A stretch of DNA of 62,251 nt, filler included, from Sluysia triapertura (GCA_046118255.1; 4 parts of 4 records of this genome joined end to end with filler, not necessarily neighbours in it); one strand, 5' to 3'. Counted from the first letter of the whole stretch, positions 7,071 through 58,905 are shown. Notes: generated by a model from the sequence alone, not told the origin. Translations and numbers: made by a program.

Positions 7071-7800
7071 TGTGGTGGCCAACCTTTTTATTCAAAATTT
7101 AAATTTTTATCACACATACTTAATACCACTTTTCTTAACATTCCACATTTCACTTTTTCAGATTCATTAAAATCCGTTTAAATTTTAAAACATTTCAAGT
7201 TCACAATTTTTCAACATTCAGTCATTGACATCATTAGAAAAACATTAAATCCATAATTCAAAATTATTTTAAAACATCAGTATAATCAAAGTGGAATTTC
7301 TTTAACATCTTTAACTACCTTGTTACCTTATTATTACTATTTCAGTAGTGCAGTAAGACAATAAGAAAAATAATTATTTTATTTTACATTTTAAGAAGAA
7401 ATATGTTTCAAGAAAAGAAAATAAAAGAACTTATGTGTTTGATTAATTTTTCTTATTATTATATTATTTTTATTATCATTATCATTTTTTTCTTATTTAT
7501 TTCACATTATTATTATTATGTACTTTAATTCTATTATTATTATTTATTTATTATTATTAATTTTTATTAGTTTTATCATTATTATGATCATTATTTCGGC
7601 TGTCAGTTTGGACAGTTATTTAAAATTTCATTACATTTAACGTCAACATATCGTCACGTAAATGTTTATTTGTCATTGGTTATATGTATGTATGTATTAG
7701 TAACAATTGAGTGGTGTGACATGAATTTTATTGGCCTTCCAGTCCTATTTCAGGAGACTATTAGTTAAAAATAGTAGCAAAAGTAAAGATAGAGTAATCA
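7071..7800 (+). mobile_element. 5' module of gene-capture cassette, unit A
   Basis: Starts TGTGGTGGCCAACC at 7071, then an A/C-rich tract, ATT microsatellite (~7450-7590) and degenerate inverted-repeat region, then a cargo pseudogene from 7835. Confidence 0.6.
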
Positions 7801-7834
7801 TAAAAAGCATTAACAAAAAATTTAAATTAGATTC

Positions 7835-8640
7835 ATGAACATTTTATCCAATCAAATTACAAAAGTATTGTTATCTTCAATGTCGTACAAAAGATTTAAA
7901 GTTCCTATCAGTTTTGATGACGATTGTGACAATTATAATCACATTCAAAAATACATTATGAGCATAATGTTTATCATCAGGCTTGTATTCTAATGTGTAT
8001 AATGAGCTAACAAGTAATACAAAATGGATAAAGGATGCAAATCTACATGCTAACATCATTAGTAACAAGATGAAATCATGTTATCTTATCCCAACTTCAA
8101 AAGATAATGAAGTATCAACTTCAATTATGTTACAAAAAGTGTTTAGAAATCCCGACAAAATATAGATTTCATTTTGTTAAATAAGTACATCTTGATGATC
8201 AAATATGAACAATATAAACCATTGCAACCGGTGTTCCCAGGTTATCCTGATTCTAGCAATACTGATGATGTCGTTCTAAACCGCCAATTCATTTCGAACA
8301 TTATCTCAACAGATCATGTTTCTACTCTACCACTTAGTAACAATAAAGCTATATCAATTCCTCTTAAATATTCGGTATCATTTAGCCTTAATAATGCCAA
8401 TAATGCAAAACTCAATACTATACAAGATGATGACCATTCATTATTCTACAAATCAGCATTGTGTCCTTACGAAGTTTCAAGTTCTGGTCTATGCATCACA
8501 AACGGAAAAGACTATCATTACGCGCATACAATTCTGGTAGTCAATACAATTAGTCCTTATCGTTTACCAATTGAAGAAGCTGAATCAAACTCAATAACCG
8601 AACATTGTTCTAAGGATACAGAAAAATTTTCCAAAGTAAA
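7835..8640 (+). pseudogene. Frameshifted intronless pseudogene with a CCCH zinc-finger remnant (cargo of unit A)
   Basis: Broken ORFs from ATG 7835 (7983-8165, 8174-). YKSALCPYEVSSSGLCITNGKDYHYAH is C-x9-C-x6-(C>Y)-x3-H at ~8447-8530. Confidence 0.6.
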
Positions 8641-8659
8641 TTTATGTTTAATTCATGAG

Positions 8660-9118
8660 TTATCTATGTTTATTTACCATCATTTTTATTTATTTATTTT
8701 TCTAGTGATAATTGAAAACATGGCTATAGTATGTTCAGGAAATTACGAACAAAATTTTCATATAACTGTTACTAATTACAAAATTAATAAATTTTATAAC
8801 TCTCATGAATTAGTTGAAATAATAATTTTAATGATCTAAAAGACAAATATACTATAAATTATAGGCTTCAATTTATAATATCCCAATAACTCAGTGAATT
8901 GATCGCAAATTATTTTGCCACAGATATCAAAATTGTCCGAAAAGTGTAAAAATGACGAATTAGTCATCGACCAATAGAAATCGACAGAATGTTCTTTTCT
9001 ATTTTTAATAAGGAATTTTCTTTTTTAGAAATTAAGTTATTTTATTGAAAAGCGAGGTTAATTTAGTGGTGTAAATTGTTTTTGAATCTTTAATAGGGTT
9101 GTGATGACAACCTAACAT
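8660..9118 (+). mobile_element. Decayed solo-LTR-like repeat, same family as 53036-53781 and 54151-54734
   Basis: Shares tagtcatcgaccaatagaaatcga... and the terminus gggttgtgatgacaacctaaca with those copies. Another terminus lies at ~814-835. The 5' boundary is approximate. Confidence 0.5.
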
Positions 9119-9494
9119 TACAAGTATTCACTTCTCATTCTAGTTTCTTTTGATAAAATAAAATTCTCAAATTCGCTTTTTACTTAATTTTCGGTCATGA
9201 TTCGATAACAATAAAAACAATAATAATAATAATAGTAATAATAATAATAATATTTTAAATAAAAACCTTACATAATTCATGTCAATCAGTATAAAAATAA
9301 AAATAAAAATAATAAAATAGTAATAGCAACAGTAACGTCATGCCATCTACTTATCCATGGGTCTCTAAATTAATAAATTAATTAAAATAAATAAACAAAT
9401 AATTTGATTTTTCATCAAAAAGCATTCAAAATAATTCAAAAGCGTCGTCAGATATTATTAATTTATATAACTTGATAATTACTTCTTCTTCTCA

Positions 9495-9758
9495 TGTTGG
9501 AATAATGGCTTAAAGTGTCATTTAGAAATACGATAGTAATATTGACTATAATAAAATAAAATTGTTAGATGGGGATGATAGTTCAGTGGAGACTAACTGC
9601 GGAATCCTCGAATAACGTATACAGCAATGTTCCTGAAAGAAGAAATAAAATTGTTCCTAAATATAAGGAGACCTTCATTCTCTAAAAATAGAAGAGATAT
9701 GTTTTTTATTATCATCGAACTACGCAGCGAGAGGATCTGGGTTCGCTGAAGTCTAACA
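9495..9758 (+). mobile_element. Solo LTR of the tRNA-containing TRIM, with an internal insertion
   Basis: TGTTGG...ggcttaaagtgtcattt...ggggatgatagttcagtgg...gaagtctaaca, flanked by a perfect 4-bp TSD CTCA (9491-9494 and 9759-9762). Confidence 0.8.
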
Positions 9759-11329
9759 CTCATAATAATTTAAATTATCACATTTTTCTACTGCAAGCAA
9801 CTAAATATCATTGAAATATTATATTTGAAATATTTTATTTGTAATAAACATTTATTAGTTTTAATATTTCTTTATTGTGTGAAGAACAATTAAAATAGCA
9901 ATAAATAAAAACAACGGTACTCCTTAAAAAAGCGTAAACATTTGAAAATGAGAATGAAATACTTCAAACTCGGAATAAAAAATAATAAAAGTAACTGAAA
10001 AACAGAACAGAATTACCATAGAAATGAATGAAAGTCAATATTATATAAAAGAAAGTGGTGGTACAATTACAAAATTACACAGAATATGATCGTAATTGTA
10101 GAATAAAATTCGATGTACATAATAAAATCACAATAATAACGGACAAAAACAAAAACAGAAAATAATTCGGTAGAAAATACTACTTACTTTTAATAATAAT
10201 AGAAAATAAATGATGATACATCAATTGCCATCTCGGTAAAATAGATTTTGCATTATTTTCACCGAATTTTAAATATCTAAATATAAATAAACACTATCTT
10301 AAATGTCTTTGATTATTCACGATTGTCTTTAGTAAACTTCACTACTTGATTTCCATCACAACTTCATGTATAACAACTCCATAGATAACAGAAGTTGGCA
10401 TTTATTCTAGCTTTTCATAACATCTTCGAGTCCTTGTTAAAGTGAATATCGACAGACTTGAGTTAGAGACTTCAAATTATACAAATAAACTATTTTATAT
10501 TAGTCAATAAATAAAGGTCTTCTTTATTCTAACATTGTAACTGCGTCTCACTTTATATATCAGTTAGTCTTTACAATTCTTAGCTCGATAATAAATTGAA
10601 CCTCTGAAACACACTAAAGCAAATATCGATGACATCCGACGCAACTATATAAATAAAGAAATCGCATATCAATTTGAAATTTAGACATTGTAAATTTTGT
10701 AATTCTCCGATTTATCGAATATGAAATAATTATAAAATTTTCATATTCGGACTAATTCAGATTTCCACTTAATTCCAATAATATTTCCTGATTCACTCAT
10801 TCAATATTTGCCTTCTTTTATATCTTTGGTCAATAAATTCTTCGATTTTATTCTATAATAATTTTTCTACAATCATCATTTAAAATACAAGTTTTATCGT
10901 GATAATATGACATATAATTTATTTATTATATTATTTATATGTTTAGTGCTGATTGTATTCGATTTTTCATTCCCATTTTTATAACATTTTATATTTTACG
11001 TTCTTCCACTTCTTCTGTGTACTCTCCAACTTTCTCTATTTGCTAATTAAGTTTCCTGGTTACACTCTGTGTGTTTCTTACGATTTAATTCTATAAACTT
11101 CTTCAGTTAAGTACATTTTCAAATGGTTCTTTATTTATTTCCGAACTCTTCAATTGTTTTTATTACAGCTACTACGATATTTTATATTTATTTTAAATTA
11201 TAAATTTATTTTCGCACAAATTCTTAAAAAAGATTACAAATTAGAGAAATTGTCATTGGTACTTTCCTAAATAATACTTCATGGGTAATTAAATATATTC
11301 CAGCACAACACTGGCACCATCACTTTCAT

Positions 11330-15798: not shown

Positions 15799-15898
15799 NN
15801 NNNNNNNNNNNNNNNNNNNNNNNNNNNNNNNNNNNNNNNNNNTTAATTAATTAANNNNNNNNNNNNNNNNNNNNNNNNNNNNNNNNNNNNNNNNNNNN
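15799..15898. other. Assembly gap with artificial TTAATTAATTAA spacer
   Basis: N44-TTAATTAATTAA-N44. The same construct occurs at 37949-38048 and 50419-50518. Confidence 0.95.
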
Positions 15899-15913
15899 TC
15901 GTTTACATCTGCA

Positions 15914-15915
<2 letters not shown>

Positions 15916-15953
<38 letters not shown>
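15916..15953. repeat. (AT)n microsatellite
   Basis: Seen directly. Confidence 0.95.
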
Positions 15954-15955
<2 letters not shown>

Positions 15956-21648: not shown

Positions 21649-21822
21649 TTTTACGAAGTCTAACATTTGGTGAGCCAACATATCGAATACCCTGATGTTG
21701 AAATTAATGATTTCTAAGATGTTTGAGGTCAAACATAATTGAATTGGGTGAGATATGTTGGGGTAAAAGGCCTAAAGTGCTATTTGGTAAAATTAACAAT
21801 AATAAAATAAAACTGTTAAATG

Positions 21823-23389: not shown

Positions 23390-23742
23390 CTTAGATATAA
23401 ATAGAAAGATAGGTTGATAATAAGGATAAAAGAAATAATAATAATAACAATTATGTGGTTATTATGTTTATTATTACAGAATTGTTGATGTTGAAATTTA
23501 TTATGAAATTTATTATAAAAGTTATTATTATATGATCATATTATGACAATAATGACTCTAATTGTTATATATATTTTAATACGATCTGAATTGTAATAAT
23601 AATAGCGATAGTTCATGATAATTAGATGTGATGGTCATGCTTGTTTTTGAATGAGTTTAGTAGTTTGTTTAATAGTCTGTGTACATGTGAAGTGTTTTTA
23701 TGTGATGAATTGTGATGGATTTTATGTGATAAATTCCCTACA
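23390..23742 (-). repeat. Second cassette-like 5' module starting TGTAGGGAA; copy of 29770-30111
   Basis: Clear alignment with 29770-30111. A decayed ORF (MVDNTNIILDNDGYF...) follows on the minus strand. Confidence 0.65.
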
Positions 23743-26675: not shown

Positions 26676-28699
26676 TTTTAGATGATTTTAGTCATTTAAA
26701 GTTTATTCAATGAAATCCAAAACATTATGAATGCAAATTAAATTATTATTCATTGGTATTTTTTCGAAAATGATAAATTCAGAGTTTTTTTGACTGCAAT
26801 AGAATATAATTTATAACCAATCAGAATTCAAACATATTGCAAAAATTTATGCATAGTCATTAATATGTACAAGTTATTAACTACACTTGATAACTAATGC
26901 ACTATTTCAAATAATCCTTTGTGGACCAATATTTTTGCTATTGGTTTATTTGTTGTGTCTGGAATTAAAAACTTGCAATTCGCTGAAGTGGTAGAAAAAT
27001 TAAAACTATTTGATAGCTCATTTATAATTGGATAATTAAGATCATTGAAAGATTAGATTAATATAATGCAAAAATGGAGATTTCATCAGACTGTCGTACA
27101 ATTCTTAAAGAGTGTAATGACCATCGCTAGAAGATTAAGTTCATATTAAAAGTAGGGCATAAAAATATAATATTAGATACAACATTCTTTCATAAATTAT
27201 GTGTGATAGCAGATTATAACAGATTCTTTAGTGCTGCGTGATTCATTATACGATTAATTAGGTCATAAATCAAAATGGACTACTAGTAAATTAATATTAA
27301 ATAAACCATACTCATATATTTAACCCATGGTATGTACAGATTATGAACATATTTAATTTTTAATATTATAATTAGCAGAGTGATTAGCAGTTCAAACACC
27401 GATAATAAATAAAAAACTAATGTGCTTATACCAAGCAATCAAAATCTAAATGTTTCTAATGTTCATTATTAAAGACATCAAAACCTTATTAATTTTTGAT
27501 ACATGATATGTTACATGTTATCCGAAATAAGGTAACGGGTGTTTTTAATGCAATAGTAGACTATATTGTATTACGTATCTTAGAAACTTTAGCTGGATAT
27601 ATTTTTATACGAAATTTATTGCGTAAAGCAATTGATTTTTTATTTAATATTAAATTTAATAATAATAATAGTAATAATAATAATAATTGTGAAAAATTAA
27701 ACAAATAACTGTTAAACAAATAAATGAATATTTTATTAAAATTACGAACTCGAGATTTGCTTTGAAAAGAATCATGCTATTTGATAAATAAAGGTGAAGA
27801 AGAGTCTTCCGGGCAATAAATTTCTTCAAAAATGATTGGCTGATCCTGAGATTCTCCATTTATATCCGGACATTCTATAGTATAAGATATACTATAATAC
27901 GGTAATACTAGTATTTGCATGTTGATAACGTCTTCTTTATCCATAACGCTATTGCATAATTGCAAATGAATCATCCACTTATTCCAACTCTTTCACAAGA
28001 AATATTTAATCCATATTTTAGATAATTGTTTAATATTTTAAGAGTTACTGCATATATATCCAGAATTTAGCAGCAAAGTAACGTTGGATGTCTAAATTTT
28101 ATTTCATTCTTTTTGCAACAAAATTGTATGCCATTTAAAGAATTATGAATGTAAGGATTAGATCGTTTTATAGTATAGATACGTACTACCGTATCGGATG
28201 AAAAGCTTTAAAAGAGCATAATATTAATGCTGAATTTCCGGTTTATTAAATTCTAATAATGTAAGCTTCAGCATCAATGTTTATTTTACATTTTATTTTG
28301 CATGATTTATACAATATTGAATATTTAGTTTCGCTGAAAAAGATATAACTATAACAATTATCAATTCAGATGTATTAGATGTTGATTGTAATTCAACATA
28401 CTTTATATAAACTGATGTGAGCAAACATACTTCCAATTTTTATAAATAAGTCCACTAATAAAACAATTTGACGAATTATTAGTTGGAAATGTAGATTCGA
28501 ATTTATATTCAAGGTACTGTAACAGGCTTATGAAATACTAAATCAACTAGTTCAGAATTACCACCACATATAAGCATTAATATTAACAACATAAATTTAA
28601 AATCGATTCTTTTAGCCTGTAATAATTAGTTGCATAATATTATTTTTGAATATGATTTTCAAATATCAAGACTATGTTTGGTTTATAAAATATCATGTT

Positions 28700-29700
28700 T
28701 TCCAAAATAAGTTCATTAATAATTCTATCATGATCCAATTTATCCAGTTTGATTTTTTGTTGTTAGGGTACTCTTTTTGATATTCTATGAATCCGCAAAT
28801 GTACATGTTAGATCTCCTCTGTATTTTATTTTAAAAGTTATTTGATTATTTGATTTAAGCAATAAATTTTTCATTTTGGCTTTTCGATGACATTGAATAA
28901 AATAATCTCTACTTTTGTGTACACTTATACCATTTACTGAATAAATCCTGCATTTTGGTAATGAACTTCGGCGTCGTTCGTTATTTGGTGGAACTGATGA
29001 ATTATATTTTTGTGTTTTATTAGACATTATAGATAAAAAGTTATAAAAAATCCATTTAGTAATACGTTCTGTTTTTCCATTATTGCGAGTTCGTCTAGGA
29101 TCTAAATTAAGCTTTTGTTTCACCAATTTATTGGTATTAATGAATGAGATATATTATTGATTATTTTACGATATGAATTTATAATCACATAATTTGATTG
29201 TTCTAATTTCATTGTAAAGTAAGGATTATGAAACACACTGATATCTTCAGAAAAATTGCGCCTCAGAATTGCGTTATCAATTACATTTTCACTTTGTGAA
29301 ATAACGGCTGCACAAATATCATTATTTTATAAATGAACACAATTATGGGTCTGATGTGAAATTTCAAAAGAAATATAAAAGTAATTCAGTTTAGAAATAT
29401 ATATATCTATTTCATTATTTTCGATATGATTTGATAAACTCGGTAAAACTTGAAAGCATTTAGACTAGAAATAGAACTTGAATTGTTTCAAAGAAATCGA
29501 GTCGTTTGCAAGCGTTTCGTAAAGTGTGTAATGGCAAAAATACGTATAATTATAATTTATTTGATTTTGAATGATGAAACAAGACACGGATGTATAATAA
29601 GTTACATGTAACTGCCCTTGATACAAACATTAAGCCGGTGGTATATTATTGTCAAAAAACAAGGAATCAAGAACAACAATAAATAGCAGTTATTAAAAGA
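28700..29700 (-). pseudogene. Decayed gene with CCCH-finger-like remnants, downstream of the 30111 module
   Basis: ORF 28785-29126 contains LPKCRIYSVNG and YRGDLTCTFADS, resembling C-x-FAH finger ends. Confidence 0.35.
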
Positions 29701-29769
29701 ACAAATTTTATAACAGATATCAAATGCATACTTTATCGATTAACGCATAAATAAATATATACATAAACT

Positions 29770-30111
29770 GGGAAAACAAAAGAATAAAAAGAAAGGTTGA
29801 TAATAAGAATAAAGAATTAATAATGGTAACAATAACGTGATTAATATATGTTAAAAAATATTGGTATTGTTGATGTTAATATGAAAGTTATTATGTGACA
29901 ATCGTGGCAATTACATTATACGATAATAATACTAATAATTATTATTTTAATACGATTGGATCTGTAATAACAATAGTTATAGTTCGTGATAATTATGTAT
30001 AATGGTTATGTTTGTTTTTTGAATGAGTCTAGTTGTTTGTTTAATAATCCGTGTAAGTAAGTGATGTTTTTATGTGATGAAGTGTGATGAATTTTATGTG
30101 ATTTCCCTACA
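29770..30111 (-). repeat. Second cassette-like 5' module starting TGTAGGGAA
   Basis: Paralogue of 23390-23742. A/C-rich then ATT-rich on the minus strand. Confidence 0.65.
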
Positions 30112-31734: not shown

Positions 31735-32943
31735 TTAGATGCCTTTTAGTAGTTCACACATTTTGCCATCTAAATAAAAATCAAAGATTATAATATCATT
31801 GGTAAAAAGATAAAAATTATTTAATTCACGTTCATCCATACATAAAAAGTTATTGAACAAATTTCGAGTTGGTAATCCAAGACTCTCGAGGATATTTTCA
31901 AGTCTGGAGAAGTGATCAATATATCGTGTAACTTCGGTATTAAGAGTTGTTAATTGGTTGACAGTGTGGGCATATTGGCAATAGATCCAAGACTTCATAC
32001 AAATAACGTTTTGGTCACAGTTGAATGGACAGAACACTATTTTGATAAGTTTACATTTTTCTGACTGAAAGCTGTCTTGGGAATTACTATGATGTAAACT
32101 GCTATCATAATTCTTAATACTTTCTTTACTTTCTAATATGTCATAATATATGAAATTGTTTGATAATCATTTGCATCGCTTAGTGATTTATATTCTACAG
32201 TATAATCGTTTATATTCATCATAATCTTCACTAGAACTGAGAATGGCATTTGCATGTTTTGAGAAAAAATGTCACCATCATTAATAATTATAATAGATTC
32301 CAAATTCATTGATTCATAATCAAAATTAAGATATTCGAACGAATTAAGAGAGATATTGTTCAACTGAGGTCAATTAAATTATTTGATATTATATCTAAGT
32401 CCGATAATTTTAACGCATCTGAATTAAACCATATATTTAGTAAAGGTGATATTGTATCTAGCTTGAAATGTAAAGCTTTAATCAACTTTAACAATGCGCA
32501 AAATATTTCAACAATTTCAAGATCTCTTAAATTAAATTCTTAGAATAAAAATGATTCAGAAATTTCGTATCAGATTTTACTAATTCAATATAACGATTTA
32601 ATGTTATTTCATTGATAACATGCATAATCCAAATTCTACTATAACCAATATTTGTAACAGAGTTACTGTCATCATATAGGTTTTCACAAAATTCTTTCGA
32701 AATTAACTCTTTTATAACTGTCCGAAATTCGTAATCAAAAACCAGCTTGGGTATATTAAACTTTCGGAAAATAATAGATGTACATCTAAGTTGCTGATTA
32801 AGGAGCATTGCTTCTAGGGCAGAACAGCAATTAAATGAATAACTAAAATATGATTTTTCTTGAAGGTTTCTACCTTCTTTATACATTAATATAGCTTGTA
32901 CAGATTTATTCAAATGTTCTATAATCAGCTCTTTATCAATCAT
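31735..32943 (-). pseudogene. Intronless RUN-domain (PLEKHM1-like) plus CCCH zinc-finger gene with three 1-nt frameshifts (cargo of unit B)
   Basis: LEAMLL...IGYSRIWIMHVINE...FY-/-LRDLEIVEIFCALL...FKLDTISPLLNIW is a RUN domain. The C-terminal CPFNCDQNVICMKSWIYCQYAH is a CCCH finger. Confidence 0.7.
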
Positions 32944-33009: not shown

Positions 33010-33533
33010 ATACTAAGATAATAACAGAAACTGCAAAATTTTTTACTACTAGTAATTATAATTGTTGCATAAAAATTTTTTTTCATGCACGTTTTTTAGT
33101 GTATGAAAATATATGATGATCTTTTATTGGTTGCCCAACCAGAGCAATAAAAATAATGAACATAGCCACTCTGGTTGGACAACCAGTAATAACACAAATC
33201 ATTTTTATGTTGAAAAGGCAACCACTATCAATGGTGACAAGAATTTATACATGGCAACCAACAGTTGCACCACTGATAGTGGCAATAACAAATTAAATAC
33301 TAAATTAATTAAAAATGGCAAAAATATAAATGATATAATAATAAGAATAATAATAATGATGATAATAATAATCATACAGTGTTATTATTATTATTATTAT
33401 AACTACATAAGTTTCTTATTTGAACTTAACGTAATCTTTCTTTTGATTCTTTTAAATTTCTTAACATATTTAAAAGTTAAAAATGATGAAATTAGAATGA
33501 TAACATTAATAACAAGAACAACAATGTTTTCGC

Positions 33534-33593
<60 letters not shown>

Positions 33594-34716
33594 ATAAAGC
33601 CCTTAGATTCTTTTAAACATAATCTTTCCTTGTACTCTTTAATATTTTTTACATATTTAAATTGTTAAAATAGATGAACTTATCAGAATTGTGAATTTGT
33701 GGTGTTACAGCTTAATGTTACATGTTTTGGATAAGGTTTTAAGGTGTAATAGTGACGCTAATGTTATGAGATAATGCGTAAAGCGTTTTAGTGTAATTTT
33801 AAATGCTATTTACTAATTTTAAGTGAAGAAAACTTTAGGTGTTAAATATTTTGAAATAATATATATGTTTTATGTGGATGTTAAAACACACCTTGATGTT
33901 CTGAATGAAATAGTGTTTTTAGCTGAAGATGAGCATACGTATTGAAAGGTTATGATTTAAATATTTTGAAATAACATGAATGTTAAAAATGAATGATAAA
34001 TATACGTTGGATAATAATAATGTTGAATGAAAATAATGTTTAGTTATTTGGAGGTGTGACTTAAAATGAACTGAACAAAAGTATAGTTTAGTGTATAAGT
34101 TATAGTCTAGCTTTTAGTATGTTCAAAAGGTGATTGTGCTGTGTTGAAAATATGATTTATTTTCTTGCTATTTTTAAGTGATATTGTCTTTCTGCGATGT
34201 TAGGGATAAAATGATAAAGGATTAAGAATTTGGATTGCTTGAATTGATTTGAGAATGTCTGGTAGTTAATTTCGAATGTGGATGAAATTGAATTGTTAAG
34301 AAATGAAGAATAAAATATTTTAGATGAATTTTTTAATGTAAATTGACGGTTTTGAATGTCATTGTGGTTTGGATGTTATGAGATTGTCGATTTAAAATGT
34401 TTTGATAAATGGTAATTGATTTTGGTGGATCTGAAAAAGAAATAAGATGTGGAAACGGTTTTGACCAATTCTAAAAGGTTGTTGTGTGGTGTTGAAAAGG
34501 ATATGATTTTAGTTATGTTTGTATTGAACTGTGAATTTAAAAGTGTGAGTTGTAGATTTTGAGGGTGAGTGTGATATTAAAGTATATGATTTTGATTATA
34601 TTTACACGGAATTATGTATAAAATGTATATTGTATATTTTGAAAGTGTACGTGATTTTGTAACGTTCAAAAGATTTTTTAATAAAATTTGTCAAAAGTAA
34701 TAGGTTGGCCACCACA
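33010..34716 (-). mobile_element. 5' module of gene-capture cassette, unit B
   Basis: TGTGGTGGCCAACC on the minus strand from 34716. Aligns with 43287-43960 and 38750-38910. Contains (TTA)n 33533-33592 and twin inverted repeats at 33128-33282. Confidence 0.75.
33128..33282 (-). promoter_or_regulatory. Twin inverted-repeat module (candidate promoter) upstream of the cargo
   Basis: IR1 33128-33144 with 33169-33185 (16/17 match). IR2 33222-33236 with 33268-33282 (14/15 match). Confidence 0.45.
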
Positions 34717-38048: not shown

Positions 38049-40634
38049 TTTCATTTAGGACATTTTAACTCATAATCTCACAACATTAGAACTACAATTT
38101 ACATCTTAAACTATCAAATATACATATTTAAAACTAATTCTATACATTTTCAAGTTCCAATATTCTATATTCAAACCTTACCTTCTTTCAAAATCGTCAA
38201 ATTATATTTAAAAATTCATAAAAAACACTTCCAGTACATGCCTTACAACATTAAAATTACATTCAAGTTCATATCCTTAATATACATTAAAACCCAGCTA
38301 AAACATTTCATTCATCATTTCACAACACCAGAATTACAATTACACCTTCAAAATAATTCAAAACTTCTCAAATTCATATGATAACCACATAGGAATCACA
38401 AGCATTTTCAGAAGTAACAACTTATAAATAAAAACTTCATAAAAACATATTATTCACAACGCATAACCTTAAAGGCACAACATAATCCGTAAAAGTAGCC
38501 TAAAACTCTATAAGTTCATAATTCTTTAATTCTCATCCACACTAAGAAAATCAACTATATTAAGATAATTTAAATATAGAAATACAAGAACTAAAAGAAA
38601 GATCTTATGTTATTATCATTTTTAAAAGATTTATGCGGTTTATAATAAAAATAATAATAATAATAATAACATTATTGTTATTATTATTATCATCATTTTT
38701 ATTTTATTTTATTAATTTTATTTTATTCAAATAACTAATTTTATTAACTGGTTATTACCACTATCAATGGTGACATTGTTGGTTTCCATGTATAGATTGC
38801 TGTCATCATTGGTAGTGGTTGATCACTCAATGTGAGACATTTTTCAGTACATTATTGGTAGTCCACCCAGAGTAGCTCTTTTTATTATTTTATCACTCTG
38901 GTTGAACAACGGATGAGGAGAGTTTAACAGTATTTACTCATTAGAGCTATCAATTTTATATAGTTAAAAAAATTTAACTTGACATTTAACAGTTATTCTG
39001 TATTTTATTGTTATTCACTCATCAATATCGTACATTCGCCTTATACTTATTCTTTGAAACAATATTGAGATTTAATAATTTGATATTCTAATAGTAAAAA
39101 AACAGAATAAGATAACTGACTTTAAAGATTTAATGTTTCATAAAAATGTTCAACGAATTAAATTTAGATAGTCAATTGGTAATTAATGATAACGGAGACA
39201 TCAAGTTTAGATTAGAAGTTCTTTCTGAATCAACAGATGTTGGAATTAAGGATAAAGGAAATGTTGAAATAACTATTATACGATAGTATGCTACAACTGA
39301 TGCCCACAAAGTACAAATTCAATTCAAATATAAATGGTAAAATAGATGTCGAAATATGCGATTTAAGTATTAATTCATTAGTTCTAGATGAAGATGATTT
39401 TATGTATGTCCAATTTGGTGACACTAAAACTCTAGAAAATAATATTCGCTTTGTTGGAAACATTGTTAATCGAATCCAGGAAGATTATTTAAGTATTTTA
39501 CCTTATTTTAGATATTTTGAAACAACTCTGGAACAATCTGATTTACAGGTTTAAGAAATTTTATTTGAGGACAACAAGAATGTTGATGTTCTAAAAAATA
39601 TTAGTGGCGAACGAAATTGCGCAAAAGTAAGCAAAGTCATTGTAGATGAACATGTATGTCATAGATTCAATTTACAGTTTGAAATATATTTATATATAAA
39701 AAATTATATAATGTTATTTGAAAATAGATTTAAAATTAAGAAAAAAGATTTCGTGAGTTTGATGTAAATTATCAAAAAGATGATCCTCAAATTATTGATT
39801 TTAATAAGACAAAGTGATTATAATGAAAAGTGGTTACAAATTAAGTTTAGTAATAATGACTTATTCAATCAGTGTTATTTATTTGATAAAATTTATACAA
39901 AAGCTACATTCGAATTTTTGCTAGATAATTTCATAATGTATCAAATAAAAATCGAATTCAACATAATCGATTACAAAGGTGTCGATACGAATCTTTGAAA
40001 TTATTAGGAGGACCAGAAATAATGCAAGAATATTCTCTAAAAGAGAATATCATTCAATTTGATGTTAACATAATGCCATTAATCCGATCAGACTTGGACA
40101 ACAAATCACGAATCATGAAGTCCGGCTTATGTCTTTGTGCAACGACTCAAGATGGAAAATTTGTAAGATATTACAGCAACTATTGGTTTGTACAAAATGC
40201 AGCTGAATTCACGGACTTCTTTTTGACTTCGAACTTAACGAACCATATTTCTAGAATAAAACAAATGATGTCATCATTGGACACAAAGCCATCCGATAAC
40301 AACAATCATGTTGACTCAAAAGTAATTGTTAATTTTAACCTGATTCATAACTTTATTATTTTGTTTTCTCTGGAATCTTCTACGAAGTGAATCCAAAACA
40401 AGCTCGAGATAACGTAATCAAAAAAAGAACTTTAATATTAAATGTTTATTTTTCTTCTAATCATAATAAAAATTTTGTTAATATTTTCGTGTTTCTTAAC
40501 GCTACTAAATTTCTAATAAATTTAAATAAAAATGTTAAAGCATTCTCGTTACTGCAATATATAAAATTATATTCTCTTAGCAATATGATAAAATTAAATT
40601 TTTTAAATATTATAAATTATTTCATGTCACCACA
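38049..40634 (+). mobile_element. Gene-capture cassette, unit C (5' end lost in gap)
   Basis: A/C-rich tract, AAT repeat, IR module 38757-38910 homologous to unit B, cargo 39146-40400, ending GTCACCACA at 40634. Confidence 0.7.
39146..40390 (+). pseudogene. Intronless, disrupted gene of unknown family (cargo of unit C)
   Basis: Chain of coding-like frames from ATG 39146 (39288-39554, 39780-39998, 39995-40390) with in-frame stops and frameshifts. Confidence 0.6.
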
Positions 40635-43286: not shown

Positions 43287-45672
43287 TGTGGTGGCCAACC
43301 TATTACTTTTAACAAATTTTATTAAAAAATTTTATTTTGGACATTACAAAATATACAATAAACATTTTTACAATTCATTAAAAACATTTTATACATAGTT
43401 CTAAGTCAGTATAATCAAAACCATGTGTTTCAATATCATACTCACCCTCAAAATCTACAACTCACATTTTTAAATACTAACATAACTATAATCACACAAT
43501 TACTTCTTACAATGTACTAAATCATCAGCCATAATTTATCTTCTTTACATTCACTAAACTACTCTTTTTGAACATAGTTATAATTCACAATCTTTTTACA
43601 TCCAAACATTACGTTCATTCAAACACCAATATACATTTATAATCCATTTCAAACATTTATATTATTTCAAAATACTTAACACCTAAATTTATCTTCACTT
43701 AAAACTAGTAAACAGCATTTAAAATACATATTAAAATGTTTTGCGCATTATCTTATAACATTAGCGTCATTATTACACCTTAAAACCTTATTCAAAATCG
43801 TAACATTAAGCTGTAACATCACAAATTCACAATTCTTTAAGGCTCGTCTGTTTTAATAATTTAAATATGTTCAGAAATATTTAAAGAATGTTTAAGGAAG
43901 CTTGTGTTGTAATTATTCAAAGATTTTATGCGTTTTATAACAATAATAATAATAACATTGTTATTATTATACTAAAGTTTATTTGATTCATTTGGACTGA
44001 CAGTTGACTGGATGTCCAATTATAATCATAATTTCACAAAATCTTTGTTATCTTGAACTGAACATCCAATCACTACGAGCGATTTATAACTGGCATGAAA
44101 AAAAATCATGATTGTTCAAAAATCAGAAAATAAAAAATTTTTGTAGAATACGTTCTTAAAAGATAAGTTAAAAAATCAAGTTATCAATAAATTACACTAG
44201 TGGTAAATTAAAAAGCCAGTTTCATGTTTGTTAATAATTTAAAAGTTAAAAGAGATCAGTGCAATTAAAAGTTAAATTAGATCAGCTCAATCAAAATTTA
44301 ACAATTTTAAAGAACAAAACTTCGTTATAAAACGTTAAATAATTATTACAATGTTAAGTTTAATTAAATATGCAAATTGTAGACGTCATAATCACATGAC
44401 ATGATCACTTATTATCATTATGATTATATATTTTAGTGCTTCCACTACTATTACAACTACTACTTCTAATAATGCATCTGTTTTACCAAAAATTAAAATC
44501 ATGCCTGATCCCGAGGATAAGTCATTTAGTCATGAATTTAATGAAGATAATTTTGAGTTAGATGTTAAAGAAATTTATGATTCGAAACATTCGACAAGAT
44601 CAACAAGCTTCACTAGTAACAAGTTGCATTCATGTATAAATAACTATAAAAAAATGATAATAGATACAATAATCAAACTGTATATGAACTTGAGTATAAT
44701 GTCAAAACTGATTTTATGATGGAATTTAAAAATAATATTTCTTTAGATAAGTTTGTTAGTTATCAATCATTTTATGAAGATCAAGATGAAAATATACAAC
44801 CTATTACAATTCCAGAACTAAGAAGCAGATTGATATATTAAAAATTTTAATGTGGTATCATGGCGAAGTCAAACTTCAACTTGTAAAAGAACTTAATATA
44901 CCCCATAATGAAAATCGTTGGCTACGTTACAGTAACTCGAAATATGATTTCCCTAGTATCATTAAAGTTATAAATTTTAATCGTAAGCAACGATTTATTA
45001 TTACCAAAGTCAAACGTAGTAATATATCTTTCAGTAGATAAAGATCGTAATTTTGGTGCTAATGAATTACAAGTTATGTCTCGCAAATTCAGATACCGAA
45101 ATGGTAGTATGTATCAGCTTAATCAGAGTTATTGTTCAACGTTCTTATCAAACTCATTTTATAAAAGTTCTAATGAAACAATTATGAATAAGAACCTGTT
45201 TATTTGTCAAATATAAATACAGAATACAACCATACCAATTTTTATCCTTTTGGTTTGTTATTAAATGATATTACAGAAGGTAAAGCACAATGCCCTTATT
45301 AATCAAATGCTTTTGGAAAATGTACCATCTTTAGCAAATTTTATAGTTTTTATCACAATATCTTTCAAATTAATGGAGATGATCATGAAGCTGATGAACA
45401 TAGACAAAGACTGGACAAACTATTGTTATTAATAAGTTCAAATTATCCGTACAGTAAGCCCCAATTCAGTGATCTTTAGAATCTTCCACATTACGAAAAC
45501 ACTAAATCTTCCGTGGTAAATGATCTAATACTAAATATAACTTTCGTTTTTTTCCTATGATCACAACTTTTACCTGTATTTATTATATTTCAGAACTTCA
45601 AAACAGAATCCTATAGCAACATTCAAAAACATAGACACCAACAAAATTAACATAAATTTTTCTATTATTATA
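43287..45672 (+). mobile_element. Gene-capture cassette, unit D
   Basis: GTTAT|TGTGGTGGCCAACC start, homologous to unit B. IR 44006-44021 with 44056-44071. Candidate end TTATTATA|GTTAT gives a 5-bp TSD, but this end is uncertain. Confidence 0.6.
44437..45530 (+). pseudogene. Degenerate SH2 plus tyrosine-kinase (Fer/Fes-like) gene remnant (cargo of unit D)
   Basis: WYHGEVK...RWLRYSNS is SH2-like. Downstream YPFGLLLNDITEGKAQCPY and LLLLISSNYPYSKPQFSDL resemble kinase subdomains IX and XI. Confidence 0.55.
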
Positions 45673-46599
45673 GTTATAAATGTTACTTATTGTATGTTTA
45701 GTAATAAAATCTTATGTAATGTTTTAATCTTTTATTTATGCGATGAAATTTTATTTTGAATTTTTTAAAGGCTAAATTTAATAATATCATGTACGTTTCT
45801 AATTTTGGTAAAGATAATTTGCACTTTTGTTATCGTATATGTTTAAATTTAACGCCCTATAACATAAAAAACATAATCATTATAATGTCAAAACAACTAA
45901 TTCCAAATATATATCATCTAAAACTAATAACTCCAAATATGCAATACCTAAATTGTTTATTATAAATTAAGTTTTATACTTTCACTTTATTTTAAAACAA
46001 AACGAAGTCAATTGAATGTATAATATTACATATAATTTAGTTATTAGAAAAATATTTAAAATCTTCAGAGGGTTATGTACTTGATTTGTGAATTCAAATA
46101 TTGAAAAATATTGGTAATGAATGAAGAGAGTATAGATTGATCTTTATTTTTATCTTACATTTCTATTGACCAAATCCTTGTGCCTATATTGTTTTTATTC
46201 TTATCAAACTATATTGATAAAAATGACAAAAGCTGATTATAACATTAATTTGATAATATAAATTTTTTAATAATTTAAGTTATAAACTACAATTTGCAAT
46301 TATTCCACGTTTGATTACTAATTTTAACTTTTCTTTTTATTTGTTTATGTATATGTATTTACTGTTAAATAAATCTTTTATTTATTTTTTACTTGGGTAA
46401 GTCTAACTCAAAGAATAATAAGTCACTTAATCAGTTTTAAGAGTAATTAGTAAAATAAAGTTTAAAAACATTAAAATCGAATATAAATTATCCGACATTT
46501 AGATTGAAAGAAATTTGAACCGAAGTTTATTATTAAATAATGTTAATCAAATTAATAATTAATAAACAGAGAATAAATCAAAAGAGGTGAACAATTTAT

Positions 46600-48448: not shown

Positions 48449-50418
48449 CGTGGTCAATATATAATTTATCTAGCTGTAATAATAATTGGCTCCTCTTGTA
48501 GCAAAATTTTTAAAAGATTTTCTTCTTCTGTTATACGAATCACTTGAAGAACGTTTGATTTTAAAAGATTTTTAAAAAGAAATGCTGTCTAAACAACTTG
48601 TGTGAGATTTATGTATTTTATGCAGTTTATATATACTTTAAGATTAGTCCTTGTATGGAGGTAATGTTAAAATACCTTTCTATGGAGGTATGTTGTAAGT
48701 TTGGAAATTCAACATTAGCTTTGTCGTCATGCGACTTAGTTGTAGCGTTATTGAAGTAAATGTTATAAATGGCCTTTTGAAACTTTTGATCTTTGTTTAA
48801 TTTAAAACATTGCTGATTTATTTTAATGTTGGTATGAGCTAAGTCTATTATTATATCGTGTAATTTACAATTTAGAAACAAATTATAATAACGAAATGAA
48901 TAAAATGATACATTTATTAAAATTTTGTATTTTATAATGTAATGGAAATGATCATTCGCGTGCTGGATCAACTGTGTTTCTCTCCACATAGCTCCGGTCC
49001 TGTTAGGCATTGATCTATAAGTAAAACAAAAAGGTATATAATATATAATATAATCGGAATTGATAGATATATTGTTAAAGTGAAATTCATTACCTCGTAG
49101 GCAGGATGTCTCCCGGAAACCTCCGATCAGCTTGCTATCAGTAGTCCTCCATGATTGTTTTACTTTGTTCGCGAGTGTTACATCGACTGCATCATCTTTT
49201 TCTAATTTCAAATTATTTACATACGTTGTATTATTTACATCATCTCTATCTTGCCTAGTGCTAATCAAGAATACTGAATCATCTTTATCGAACTTTACAT
49301 CATTTATATACATTGCATTATTTACATCATCTCCATCTTGCCTGGTGCTAATCATGAGTACTAAATCATCTTTATCGAACTTTACATCATTTACGTGCAT
49401 TGTATTATTTACATCATCTCCATCTTGCCTGGTGCTAATCATGAGTACTAAATAATCTTTATCGATAATTTGAGCTTTTGTTTCTAGATTAGCTCGTCTT
49501 GCCATAAATATATTTGTAGTTAGATCGTAGAAGATTTCTAAAACTTTTGCTGTAACTGAGAAATTATTTTTATTTCACACAGTAAGAAAATTTTGTGGTA
49601 TAATAGTTTTTGCTAAAACTATCTTTTTTTAACTGTTGCTTTCGATTATCGAGACAATTGATTTTGATAATTGAGACTGTATAATTCACTAATATTTTGT
49701 TTACAAGAATTTTCAATTTCTCTTTTACTCGCTGTGTACCGTGAACTAAGATGTCTGCCGACTTAATAATTATTGTGATGAACAATTTGTGTCTGACTTT
49801 TTTGAGATTAATTTTTTATTTTTTACCTATAGCTGTTAATAATCTTTTTTGTATTGAATCATTAAGACAAGAATGTCTGTCTATTAATTTATTGGTCGTT
49901 ATTTCTGTCTACTAATTAATAAATTTTCGCTTGCCAGCTGTTTTATTAATGGCTGGTTTATTTGTCTGTATCACATATGGATTTCATAAATCAATATGGC
50001 TGATTCATAATTGCTTGGAATGTGCAATAACCAATGGCTGGTATTGATTTTTATTTTAACCATGTTTGCCAAATTACAGCATTTTACCAATGGTTGGTAA
50101 TGAATAATAACATTGTGTGTCTGCCCAATCAGATTCGTTGTGATTATGATAATGTGGTAATAGTCTGATTGGGCGATGTGCATAACAAATGTATTTGATA
50201 TTGTTAATTATTACGTCACCATATTGATTTTTATGTTAGCTAGGATTGAATTTTGGTTAGTCATAATAATAAATAGTAATAAGAATGAATAATAATAGTA
50301 CTATTAGTACTAATGAATAATAATAAGAATAATAATAGTAGTTAATAATAATAATAAAAGGAGATAATAATAATAATAACAGTAATAATAAGAGAAATGA
50401 TAAAATGATAATAATAAT
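48449..50418 (-). mobile_element. Gene-capture cassette, unit E (5' end lost in gap)
   Basis: AAT tract 50260-50418. IR GCCCAATCAGA with TCTGATTGGGC (50123-50174). Cargo ORF 49505-48627. The end gataaattatatattgaccacg resembles the unit C end ataaattatttcatgtcaccaca. Confidence 0.55.
48627..49505 (-). CDS. Hypothetical 292-aa ORF with three 29-aa tandem repeats (cargo of unit E; may be a pseudogene)
   Basis: DKDDLVLMISTRQDGDDVNNxMxxNDVKF x3 (87-bp DNA repeat, ~49190-49463). Confidence 0.4.
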   Translation of the reverse strand: MARRANLETKAQIIDKDYLVLMISTRQDGDDVNNTMHVNDVKFDKDDLVLMISTRQDGDDVNNAMYINDVKFDKDDSVFLISTRQDRDDVNNTTYVNNLKLEKDDAVDVTLANKVKQSWRTTDSKLIGGFRETSCLRGNEFHFNNISINSDYIIYYIPFCFTYRSMPNRTGAMWRETQLIQHANDHFHYIIKYKILINVSFYSFRYYNLFLNCKLHDIIIDLAHTNIKINQQCFKLNKDQKFQKAIYNIYFNNATTKSHDDKANVEFPNLQHTSIERYFNITSIQGLILKYI

Positions 50419-54150: not shown

Positions 54151-54734
54151 TGTAAGGTTGCCATTACAACCCTCTAGAATCATTTAAAATCCAATTATAA
54201 CACTTTAACATCGTTTTAAAATTACTTTAAAAATATTTATCTTCTAAAACGGAAAATTAGCTTCTGAAAAGAATAGAAGCCTCTTGAACATTCCATCGAT
54301 TCCAATTGGCTGATGACTGGCATATAAACTAGTATCAATCTAATGAGAATCGCTATTTTGAATTTTTACAATTTGCTACAATCAATTTTAGTTCCAATCT
54401 TATTTTTGCTCTCGCTGTTTTTTCCAACAATATCTGGTTTTGTTAACTTTTCGCACTAAAATTCAAGTTGCATTCAAGATGTGGCATTATTATTAGTTCA
54501 GAACTTGCTTTTTATTCCATGCGTATCGTAAGTTATTTTTTTAAGGTGATATTAATCATTGAAGATTGGTATTTTAAAATAAACTTAAACATTACAATTT
54601 AGATAAAATATTAATTTTTGCAGTTACAGAAACACCCTCATCACTACATAAGACGTTTACTGTAACCTCACCCTGCTCAGAAAATATTTTGGCACAGATT
54701 AAGTGTTAGGAAAACCACAGGAATTGGTGTTACA
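54151..54734 (-). mobile_element. Solo-LTR-like repeat
   Basis: Minus strand TGTAACACC...gggttgtaatggcaaccttaca. Flanks cattg and tatta are a possible decayed 5-bp TSD. Confidence 0.6.
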
Positions 54735-55635
54735 TATTAGTCAAGAACCAATTATATTTCAGTATTAGTTCATGTAAAGAAAGTATATTGGAAAAATAGA
54801 TGTATAAAATTTTTTATCCTCCAATCAGATCGAGAAGTAAAAAAGTAACGTCTTTCAATAACATAATTTTGAAATTCGGTGTAGCTTCGCAGCTGGAGCG
54901 ACTTGAAATTTTTTACATGCTTTAGAAGCTTACTAAATTGGAACGGAGTTTGTTGCATGATTGTTTTAAAACCATCATTAGTAACAATTTTTAAATTAAT
55001 GAAATTTTGGCGCAAAAATTGCTTATTATTTCAGTGAAGCACCAAATTAAATTTCATCAATCTTTATCGAATGAGTTCCAATTTATTATTGGTATGACTA
55101 ATATTGTCACAATAATTAAAAAACCAAAAATATTATCGTTTTTCAACCATAAATTAATATCCTATCAAATCAGAAATATACAAAAACATTTATTAATAAT
55201 ATTACTTCTTAGAATACTTGGATATTTTTGCTGTATTCTTCAACTTCTCGAAATACTTCCACAAATATTAATTTAACTAGATCATTGTATTCATTAGAGC
55301 TTCAACATTTTTTCACATTCATTTTCGACTTTCTCGATATTGCGAATTTAACGACTTCGATAAAATTTTGTCAGTGTTTTGAATCATGTTTTCAACGGCA
55401 AAAAACAAATAATTATCATTATACTTGTACTATAACTGCATTAATTGTGTTTTTAAAATATATAGACTTTTTATCTATTTCAAAAATTTATCGTTTCACA
55501 TATCGTTGAAATTAATTTTAAATTTGCAAAGTATTGTTATTCCGCAAAAGAAATACCACAATGATTTTAGTGGAAAGTATCTTGGTGCAGAACTCATGAA
55601 TGTAATCTTTCTCGCATATTTATACTAGTTGGTCT

Positions 55636-58248
55636 TGTAGTGACTAACTCAATATCTTAGAATTTTATTTAAAAAATAGACACCAAATCACCTTTCACAA
55701 CATTTCATAATTCATAATATTTCCAAACATAAAATCACATAACATACTAACAATTTTCTATCAAAACCTTTTCTTTTCATATTTTATTTCTTCAGATGCA
55801 CCAAAACTATTTTAATACCTTACAACAATTTTTAATTCTCAATCTGACATCTAAATCATAATTACATTCAAAACCATCAATCTACAATTCAAGTTCATCT
55901 CAAACATTTCTTATTTATAAAGTTACAACACCAAAATCACTTCTACATTCAAAATAATTAATGTACAATAAATTTTAACTAAGACATTTTATTCACAATC
56001 TCATAATTGCAGAATTACATTATACATCTTAAATCAATCCAAAACATTACAAGCTCACAAACTTTCAACATCCAGTTCTGAACATCATCAAAAAAAAACT
56101 CTAACTTAGCATTTTAAAACCATTTTTACACATTCTATTTAAAATACTTTAGTTAAAAAGATTACATTAAAAGAAATCTATTTATGTCAAGAAAAGTTTT
56201 CGTGATTAAGAAAAGATTTATGTGTTTATTTAAATTTTTATTATAATTATATTATTCATTACTATTATTGTTTTTATACATTACTATCTTTTATTGACTA
56301 ATGTAATTAACTAGCCTTCACCAGTTGACAGTACATTAAACTAAATCATTATATTGCATCAAACTGTCAACAGGTGACTGTTACTATGCGTTAATTGCTT
56401 CAGTTAATTTGACGTCCAATTGGTTGTCTCTCTGTTTTGTGTTTTCTTTCATCTAATTGGACGTCCAAAAATCGACAGACTTAATTCTCATTATTTATTG
56501 TACAGTTTAGTGTGCGGAAGAGAGATTGCTGTTTGTTTTGTCAATAAACATTTTTTATTGGATTTTAATGCAATACATTTATGTTGACGACGACTATAAT
56601 GGTTATCTCTGTGTCAAAAAATGGACAATTACTCTAACAATAAAAATTGAAAATTTTCTAATGTGAAATTTAACTTTAATAATTTTTTTTAGTTCAATAA
56701 TGATAACAACTGCGGTTAAAATATCCACAATTTTAGATTATATTTCAAAATTATATTTCAAAGTCGGCCCAAGTTCAGCAACATACTATGCCATTATTAC
56801 TGAAATGTAAAGATGATATTAGTTTATCTGAAACCAGAAATGGAAAAATTGTTCTTAATGTATTCCATTTGTTCAACAATATGTGGTCAACGATCCACCA
56901 TTAATGTATATAATGACTTTAATTCCCACAGTTGAATGAGCAATGCAAAAATATGTTCAATTAATAAGAATGAGTAAAGGATTAAATCTGAAAATAATGC
57001 GTTCAACTAGAGATATAGATATGACCGATAAATTAACGGAACTTACTATTTTAGATGTCGACATTGTAGCAGCAATCCCTGGTCGAATTTTAATGTTTCG
57101 TCATCATACAAATCAAATTAAAGAAATTGTTTTATTCTATATAATATGCGATAATTGCGAAGGCAGATAGAATGATGCGTTATATATTAGATAAAGAGAT
57201 CGAAAGAGTTTTACGAATATCACCACTAAAATTAAGTAATAAAAGAAAGGAGAGAGATGAAAAGATGTTCAAACGAATACAAATTCATCCAGCAACATGT
57301 TATGGTGAAGTTGAAAAGAAGTATGGAATTTTGGGTTATGGTTTACGGCTTGTTGATGTCACATTAAAAAATAATTTTCCAACAAAGCTGAAACCTTATG
57401 TTTGGACTATGTCAAATGATACTGAAGATAAAGTTAATTTTAAAATAATATTTGAAACATTAATGCATTATATTGATGAAACATATATGTTTAAAGTTTT
57501 GCCTTTGTTAATGATGGTTCTTATGCATGGAATTACGAATCCAGAATAAGTAAAATCAATGTTAAATTGATTTCAGCATCATGCTCTGATCCAAGAATGC
57601 TCCTCCAAAAAAAAGAACAAAACAGAAATTCTTTTGAACTGAGGGATGCACAAGTTATGTGTCCAGCAAAGCATTGGATGTCAAAGTTATCGTCAACCTC
57701 AGCATTCTAAAATTTGTTGATCCTTATCGTTAGAGAGCTAGGCGAATTGCAAAAGACATTAAATCATTTTATGTTCTGGCTTTCGTGTTTCGTGAAATCG
57801 AAAGGTTGCAATCAAGTTCAGACTATTCTACAGCACAAGATGGTTATATGAATCAATGATTGCGAAATCTTACAATCGGATAAATCGACATCTAATAACA
57901 CAAAAGTAAATTTTACTTATTATTATTTAATTGATAAATTAATTTCATCCGTTTATTTATTTAGTGATATGAAGGGTAGAAATCAATGGCATATTCGAAA
58001 AAGCATCAGCATCAGTTTTAAAAATTTTATTTTATTCTGTATAAATAAAAGTAGATTGTCGTATGTTTTATTGTTCTTTTATAAGAAATCTAAATTATAT
58101 TGCGTAATTAATACTACAACAAAGTTTAACCGCAATTTTCAATTTTATGTTACAATATTTGATAATATAAAGAAAAATTTTAAAATAGATGTTTACAATC
58201 TAATGTCATTTATATTTGTAATAAGCTAAAATACATTATCTCATCATA
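55636..58248 (+). mobile_element. Gene-capture cassette, unit F (both ends visible)
   Basis: GGTCT|TGTAGTGACTAAC ... TCATCATA|GGTCT gives a perfect 5-bp TSD. Contains an A/C-rich tract, ATT repeat, IRs at ~56324-56370 and 56411-56465, then the DEAD-box cargo. Confidence 0.75.
56730..57900 (+). pseudogene. Intronless DEAD-box RNA helicase pseudogene (cargo of unit F)
   Basis: Motifs in order: Q (QVQQHTMP), I (SETRNGKI), Ia (IPTVE*AMQ), Ib (DIVAAIPGRI), II (AKADRMM), MHG, VI (YR*RARRIA). Stops and frameshifts. Confidence 0.8.
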
Positions 58249-58905
58249 GGTCTTTCATAAATTAAGAGATTATGATATTAACCATATTTTTAAATACGTA
58301 CTTAAATTAACATTCAAATTGAGATGTATGTTGCATTTCATAAAGTCAAAAAAATTTATTAAAACTTCATTAAACAATTCAAAATTTATTGATATTTTTA
58401 AAATTTTTAATATCTTCAATTCCAAAAACTGAAATTAAAATTGAGAAATATGTTTCTTATACCTAATAAAATTGAGCGATAAACCCGAAAAGTTATTTTA
58501 TAAAATCAAACATAATTTGTTGAAATTTTGAAAAGTTAATGCTTGAATTATATAATCATATTCTAAAAGCATATGCTATATATACAAGTTCAGTTCAATT
58601 TAAATAGATGATGAAAATTGCCGACAACTTGATTACACTTCTCGGTATTGGACATACTGACTCATATCGGATAGGTTGTATTATATTTGAGTAAAGCTTT
58701 CCCATATGAGTTGCTATACTAAGTGAGTGGGTTGCGCCAAGTCATTGGGTCTGACTTTTTCCTTTTTTGTGGGTCTTTTCCTTCATCTAATAAAGAAGAT
58801 TATGTTAATAGTATAAGTTTTATAAAATTGAATACAAACAAATTAAATAATAATTTATAAATATTAGTTTATAAAATAAAACCAGTGTATATTATTTAAA
58901 TTTAG

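Follow-up and report, generated by a model that had tools for sequence, protein, structure and literature searches.

Mobile elements are considered to capture genes only rarely in animals, and the described systems that come closest to the one reported here are of several types. In retrocopies mediated by long terminal repeats (LTRs; Tan et al. 2016, PMC5131818), of which there are a few per species, mRNA-derived host sequence replaces the internal open reading frames (ORFs) between two LTRs. In the miniature terminal-repeat retrotransposons (TRIMs) Cassandra, Helenus and Ajax (PMC10886601) the host-gene-derived sequence lies within the LTR, as a short 5S- or tRNA-derived piece that is constant per family, in a miniature two-LTR element with primer-binding site (PBS), polypurine tract (PPT) and target site duplications (TSDs) 4-5 bp long. 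Pack-TIR and Pack-MULE elements (PMC8277862) carry captured host sequence between the long terminal inverted repeats (TIRs) of a known family; 370 Pack-TIRs are described in 100 genomes, almost all of them single-copy, with multicopy cases (4 among the 370, plus Ssk-FB4) being rare. Here we describe at least six units, A to F, in a window of 62,251 nucleotides (the whole stretch of DNA analysed) from Sluysia triapertura (GCA_046118255.1), which share a TG-starting 5' module, hold a different gene-like cargo each, and make up about a quarter of the window.

These units resemble each of the described systems in part. As in the LTR-mediated retrocopies, host-type sequence lies in non-autonomous, amplified copies of the integrase type (TG...CA), but here one TG...CA unit encloses the gene, there is no visible LTR pair and most units retain an intron candidate. 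Non-autonomous TRIMs likewise have host-gene-derived sequence inside the repeat, whereas the cargo here is protein-coding, about 1-1.3 kb long and different between units. Multicopy captured host sequence with introns is shared with the Pack elements, and here there are at least six units in 62 kb, with a sense bias and a similar size. The ends point to two further groups. LTRs of CsRN1-clade Gypsy elements (PMC3601003) begin with the attachment (att) motif TGTGGYG and have short inverted ends only (about 7 bp); the starts found here read TGTRGTGRC, and three of the four visible ones (A, B and D) fit that motif, although the CsRN1 LTRs used for training have a mean length of 330 nt, compared with about 2600 nt here, and the search for an internal domain found none. 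Ginger1 and Ginger2/TDD transposons (PMC2836005) begin with TGTNR, as do all four starts, have lengths from about 2.6 kb and TSDs that are 4 bp long (CCGG or CCGT, or inside RTATAY) and in TDD 5 bp long, and Ginger1 elements carry introns, but theirs are TIRs of 40-270 bp (up to 297 in TDD-5) and a transposase, neither of which was found here. No report of the present layout was found by titles and abstract starts, with subscription journals, Repbase and supplements outside the scope of that search.

The 5' end of the units is the sharp terminus of a mobile, high-copy repeat. The start TGTRGTGRCYAAC occurs at 7071 (+), 34716 (-), 43287 (+) and 55636 (+), opening units A, B, D and F, which is four matches against 0.14 expected, and none of 100 shuffles gave four or more. 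Since the pattern was built from those same four sites, the independent test is provided by the sequencing reads at 43287. The region is present in one public sequencing run, whose contigs were placed on 40730-50270 at 80% likeness with the AAT tract skipped; the read evidence is limited to this interval, with units A, B, C and F and the candidate units G and H (see below) lying outside it, and covers 6 of 1695 loose-end rows and 15 of 97 joints. The contigs of the locus itself show 0-2 differences to the window at a depth of 10-14, so the run behaves like DNA from the same individual or one very close to it, and the same behaviour is seen in a 1603-nt own-locus contig (depth 12.7) that spans intergenic and intron-bearing sequence. 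In this run 109 contigs break off with a loose end exactly before 43287 (median length 255 nt, agreement 0.42) and carry many different AT-rich, unrelated flanks, which identifies the start of D as a real mobile terminus. Moreover, the summed depth over the D module, which does not equal copy number, is 4,469-10,991 against 64-87 in the quietest neighbouring bins, and at single positions of this module 20-62 contigs deviate from the window. The start-like sequence common to the units and the integrase-type mobile 5' terminus with a shared module, both proposed in the first-pass annotation from the window sequence, are therefore upheld. The exact start was not found in the metagenome or viral contigs searched. 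As a separate observation, units B and D have the left flank GTTAT in common (34717-34730 and 43282-43286), and CCAC followed by GTTAT precedes B and also makes up the end proposed for E (48440-48456), a possible sign of a preferred junction or target.

Behind the start the module runs in the order G-poor C/A-rich tract, AAGA..TTATG motif and AAT/ATT tract. G-poor, C-rich tracts were located at 7076-7300 (+), 33851-34700 (-), 38001-38475 (+), 43301-43825 (+) and 55626-56175 (+), and in five units (A, B, C, D and F) the AAGA..TTATG motif stands directly ahead of the AAT/ATT tract, in agreement with the succession of tracts that had been described. The module of A (7071..7600, +) has a short C/A-rich tract, the motif at 7425 and an ATT tract; that of B (33290..34716, -), in which the motif and the AAT tract are internally duplicated, is about 80% alike to that of D (43287..43975, +); and that of C (38049..38990, +), with its C/A tract, motif at 38626, AAT/ATT tract and inverted repeat at 38757-38819, is 72% alike to B over 354 nt. 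Unit E (48627..50418, -) comprises an ATT tract, inverted repeats at 50123-50174 and a high-copy ORF containing repeats of 87 nt. AT makes up about 75% of the window, in which there are four N gaps, three of which (15799-15898, 37949-38048 and 50419-50518) each consist of 44 N, a 12-nt spacer with stops in all frames and another 44 N, a scaffolding artefact that makes the adjacency of the flanking sequence uncertain; as had been recognised, the starts of C and E are lost in gaps, that of C in an N gap.

Between module and cargo, inverted repeats with arms of 11-21 nt and spacers of 23-31 nt are present in B, C, E and F. Folding z-scores are -7.6 for B, -3.0 for C, -3.8 for E and -3.3 for F, with a weak signal in D (-1.5) and none in A (+1.0). 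The twin repeats of B (33124..33282, -; arms of 15 and 21 nt with spacers of 31 and 24 nt) are homologous to those of C (z 36), while those of F (56318..56465, +; arms 15 and 16 nt) could be aligned to neither, and B-C is the only one of 28 pairs with homology between hairpin sequences, so the twin repeats were not confirmed as part of the shared module in which they had been placed. B is a mosaic, with a D-like 5' part and C-like hairpins. At the AAT tract of D the summed depth drops from 4469 to 135, which indicates that the constant part ends there and that hairpins and cargo are specific to subfamilies. The fixed cargo slot that had been postulated was not borne out either, as the hairpins vary with the cargo except in B and C and the junction of module and cargo falls in the skipped repeat.

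The cargoes are mutually unrelated, with no match between any two of them at E<0.05 in tblastn, as expected from the earlier claim of a different gene in each unit. Pfam matches, all of them below the gathering cut-offs, agree with three of the identities that had been proposed: cargo A (7870..8839, +) has a UNK-type CCCH finger in a broken frame (E 2e-4), the frameshifted cargo B (31735..32943, -) a RUN domain (E 3e-4) and a UNK-type CCCH finger (E 0.01), and the frameshifted cargo F (56693..58030, +) a DEAD-box helicase domain (E 7e-4), for which the comparison with CGH-1 (E 9e-6) is collinear over 90 residues. No family was identified for the cargoes of C (39130..40413, +), D (44437..45650, +) and E with Pfam, nor for D in the PDB or for C in an atlas search, which gave no usable match; the SH2-kinase assignment of D is thus without Pfam or PDB support, its text bearing a putative resemblance to a kinase C-lobe. 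The atlas search returned zf-CCCH for cargo A (score 0.75), a lead only, the PDB search supported neither the middle nor the C-terminal frames of F, and the predicted fold of the second frame of B was unusable (predicted local distance difference test, pLDDT, 37). As to parent genes, none was found for cargo A among longer proteins (0 of 434 candidates), and the search of the cargo F frame against 1.84 billion representatives gave one repeat-protein artefact with 0 stretches and no parent gene, so that it is the Pfam domain types that point to a host origin. The intact DPH3 gene in the window has closest relatives that reach about 70% identity at most, along a part of the gene, and even the resident G-protein-coupled receptor (GPCR)-like ORF has no hits, which indicates a divergent invertebrate whose lineage is missing from the searched databases.

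With a coding model trained on resident ORFs only, the sense score exceeds the antisense score in five of the six units, consistent with the same-strand cargo that had been noted; C is the exception (sense 14, antisense 20). Five of the 12 gene-like segments in the window fall within units or candidates (A, D, F, G and 16559-17054). Stops or frameshifts break the cargo frames of A, B, C, D and F, and the 292-amino-acid ORF of E is open and reads through its own intron candidate. We considered an alternative genetic code for the broken frames and rejected it: TAA/TAG read as sense opens frames everywhere and on both strands, and the resident genes are readable in the standard code. The cargoes of D and E are multicopy in the reads, in line with the proposed amplification of the cargo, with 6-21 contigs deviating at single positions of D at a depth of 220-544 and a higher depth over E (1,399-2,204).

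The claim that the cargo is intronless, and always a copy of spliced mRNA, fails. The top sense GT-AG candidates in A (8636-8705), B (31829-31770), D (45516..45593), E (49093-49015) and F (57906-57964) score 15.8-30.8 against 7.9-13.6 for the top antisense ones, while three resident introns score 15.2-15.6 on the same generic short-intron scale. Shuffles gave median scores of 9-11 and maxima of 17-23, so the candidates of B and D are not individually significant, and under a cruder rule the strands could not be told apart (4 in sense, 5 in antisense). In C an intron-like stretch with a non-canonical acceptor (about 40322-40373) is seen by eye as a decayed candidate and was not recovered by scoring; D has a weaker 5' candidate, also by eye, at 44379-44436. 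Five of the six units thus keep a GT-AG candidate, contrary to what a processed retrocopy should look like. For D the reads go further, since a paralogous contig (depth 23, 52 letters on its short side) joins 45510 to 45597 with 8 letters between, where 8 exon letters are expected, so that its net loss of 78 nt is exactly the length of the GT-AG segment of D, and another paralog (record 4) retains at least the 3' part of this intron. Paralogs of the D cargo therefore occur as DNA both with and without the 78-nt intron, and a paralog that lacks exactly this intron in a DNA run implies an RNA step somewhere. An open stretch is never proof of an mRNA origin by its length, since resident genes can be intron-poor, as the GPCR-like ORF (1.1 kb without an intron) illustrates.

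Right ends are defensible for C and F only. The end of C, GTCACCACA (40626..40634, +), matches in 9 of 9 positions and was the top match of a blind scan built from the starts alone. Unit F is complete (55636..58248, +; 2613 nt), with the decayed end TCATCATA (motif score 7) flanked by a perfect 5-bp duplication, GGTCT, a combination of end and TSD quality matched by random pseudo-starts in 2.3% of 1500 trials. These two ends, the only ones picked objectively, follow the module motif at a distance of 2009 nt in C and 2035 nt in F, and AATAAA, a motif only, stands 204 nt before the end of F. In D the paralog coverage is at background from bin 45834 and record 5 extends to 45915, which gives a likely right-end zone at 45834..45915 (+), at a distance similar to that in C and F, with an end-like motif seen by eye at 45887-45895 and no TSD. 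A TSD-matched right end is thus present in one of the four units with a visible start (F). The proposal that the far ends are the inverse of the start holds for C and F and was not confirmed for D, whose end at 45672 is bridged by record 4 (45556-45824), or for E, whose end at 48449 is not within the top 6 sites of the blind scan; similarly, the perfect TSD of F stands and the GTTAT candidate of D does not, a TSD of such quality arising by chance in about 18% of trials. Candidates for the right end of A are 9782 (+; one TSD mismatch) and 12397 (+; perfect TGTTT, across an N gap); the TSD of the A end-candidate has a chance of about 8%, and B and D have no defensible TSD. Post-hoc ends at 9782 (A), about 31419 (B) and 45895 (D) fit the 2-kb spacing, are not top matches of the blind scan and were not counted. 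The unit ends are alike for about 9 nt only, with no TIR past 9-10 nt: beyond the first 10 nt the AT-matched p is 0.11 for C and 0.22 for F.

The observation of the first-pass annotation is thus confirmed in part and its interpretation supported in part, its 5' half holding. We tentatively read the units, with less than even confidence, as oversized (about 2.6 kb) solo-LTR-like cassettes inserted by a Gypsy-type integrase and holding captured, partly spliced host genes; giant solo LTRs with embedded genes, which had been named as an alternative, fit the ends better than Ginger/TDD does. The att-like ends, the 5-bp TSD, the tandem-like 5' tract, the mosaic modules and the intron-less paralog all suggest that the unit is LTR-like and that RNA was an intermediate at some step, and a mosaic such as B, with the 5' part of D and the hairpins of C, is as expected of template switching. 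More doubtful, and on balance unlikely, is the wider proposal that a retroelement LTR has turned into a cassette of fixed size (about 2.6 kb), with a shared promoter module and an interchangeable host gene of about 1-1.3 kb, each capture founding its own multicopy subfamily. The steps past the anatomy of the units, which we infer, would be as follows. The C/A tract, AAT tract and hairpins might serve as a U3-like promoter; unspliced or partly spliced host RNA could enter between this promoter and the right end by read-through or template switching; an unseen autonomous partner would copy two-LTR elements bearing the captured gene; and the long LTRs would then recombine, leaving solo units that decay. 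Ratios of solo to full elements can be very high, 22,666 to 541 in one case (PMC6563192).

Several results weigh against the solo-LTR-like reading. A canonical sense intron is not expected to be kept in five of six units after repeated RNA cycles; the blind motif scan found no right ends for A, B, D and E; and no homology between the 3' parts of the units rises clearly over shuffles (best z 3.0-4.5, 36 pairs per test, with 2.9-3.3 in resident controls), a shared 3' intron or last exon having been rejected as a part of the vehicle on the same controls. By eye there is no paired LTR, PBS or clear PPT beside any unit, and no unit occurs as a direct LTR pair in the window; reverse transcriptase, integrase and gag families were absent from the 71 stop-free stretches (at least 62 amino acids, GC at least 24%) and the X-read regions scanned. 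No contig links module and cargo at another locus, with the AAT tract skipped in placement. Moreover, to our knowledge an R/U5 part longer than 1.5 kb is without precedent. Overall, the results suggest that the units work like a gene-capturing element of the integrase type, for which membership in a named family is a candidate assignment only.

Some of these points would be explained if only the 5' module of 0.5-1.4 kb were mobile, as a one-ended element, and its neighbours were either multicopy pseudogenes or about 2 kb of downstream DNA dragged along to a cryptic CA-like end. Kept introns, weak and non-homologous right ends, hairpins that differ in 27 of 28 pairs, and hairpins and cargo that are far less repeated than the module after the drop at the AAT tract of D all agree with this, and bypass of the 3' end with ends formed de novo is documented for Helitrons (PMC4778049). 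Against it, B and C share a continuous module with hairpins and not the cargo, the perfect TSD of F and the 9-of-9 end of C lie at nearly equal distances, and by eye there is no consistent TSD around the module alone. Helitrons make no TSD, according to the same source, whereas F has one, and the conserved end here is TGT, so Helitron-type features are not seen. We regard this explanation as improbable.

Retained introns are equally what a Pack-type TG...CA DNA transposon with a Ginger-like integrase would leave, if template switching at replication forks let it take up genomic sequence together with its introns, before it multiplied by cut and paste; multicopy Pack-TIRs have arisen in animals from capture followed by transposition (PMC8277862), and the TGTNR termini of Ginger and the 5-bp TSDs of TDD-4/5 (PMC2836005) are in keeping with it, as is the end-like site at 18824, whose resemblance to the unit starts is described below. 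Yet a TIR of at least 40 bp is absent from F (p 0.22) and C (p 0.11), the sense bias and promoter-like slot stay unexplained, the intron-less paralog would require a separate retroposition, and neither a transposase with these ends nor an autonomous partner was found in the parts of the window scanned; we therefore hold this origin to be less probable again. Programmed excision units, or insertions of segments from a multipartite, virus-like agent with a size limit of about 2.6 kb, would explain why units C, F, D and G are similarly long and why the layout is one of common region plus one gene. This is very improbable, since the cargo is decayed and of host type, the start is unmatched in viral contigs, and none of the 15 of 97 joints listed removes a unit or closes a circle, with the limit that contigs show presence and not absence.

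If the LTR reading is true, whole protein-coding genes ride inside an LTR, which extends the principle of Cassandra and Helenus beyond small-RNA pieces. On the wider proposal of a fixed-size LTR cassette, the density seen here (at least six in 62 kb) would mean that cassettes of this kind form a large share of the genome and duplicate genes in bulk through the LTR. At least two of the cargoes (D and E) are themselves amplified. Intron-bearing and intron-less copies would permit a direct test of intron removal by RNA-based copying, and, in this lineage, decayed copies would lead gene numbers and the sizes of gene families to be overestimated.

Further candidates were detected in the window. Candidate unit G (27421..30111, -; 2691 nt) has the start TGTAGGGAA, a C/A tract, a gene-like sense cargo and a possible 4-bp TTAG duplication; candidate unit H is represented by its start (23400..23742, -), which has 75% likeness to G along about 350 nt, and what follows this start is not gene-like above shuffles. 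A possible further unit at 15899-18824 (+) comprises a C-rich tract (16276-16550), a gene-like segment (16559-17054) and the end-like GTCATCACA at 18824, the inner 45 nt of which resemble the unit starts (AT-matched p 0.02).

The sites TGTGATGAC at 818, 9100 and 54168 were rejected as unit starts, their homology lying upstream and stopping a few bases past the motif. A second repeat family was seen at about 700-835 (+), 8962-9117 (+), 53046-53781 (+) and 54151-54717 (-), which ends in a purine-rich run and then an 18-nt TG...CA stretch that has a small hairpin and resembles the unit start; two copies point towards each other at a distance of about 400 nt, and one, in the orientation of cargo A, comes directly after that cargo. 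The end of this family could be a PPT with a mini-LTR or a Helitron-like end. Other high-copy repeat boundaries lie at 47776 (99 contigs with loose ends; a hairpin near the start) and 42270 (45 contigs). Copies resembling a tRNA-derived short interspersed element (SINE) occur at 21502-21911 (+), 22565-22643 (-) and 9536-9600 (+), one of which, with an unusual anticodon loop, is scored as a tRNA. The stretch 24300-26670 contains decayed transposase-like text, with a putative resemblance to hAT of the Buster/SPIN type, for which Pfam gave no match. A dispersed repeat with an internal duplication is present in two mutually inverted copies, 74-79% alike (1121-1473 and 36561-37199). The resident genes are DPH3 (3597-3845, +; no intron in the coding part), the intronless GPCR-like ORF (12630-13730, +; no database match), a transporter-like exon (41274-41618, -) and an innexin fragment (58875-59126, +; E 6e-9) about 630 nt behind unit F.

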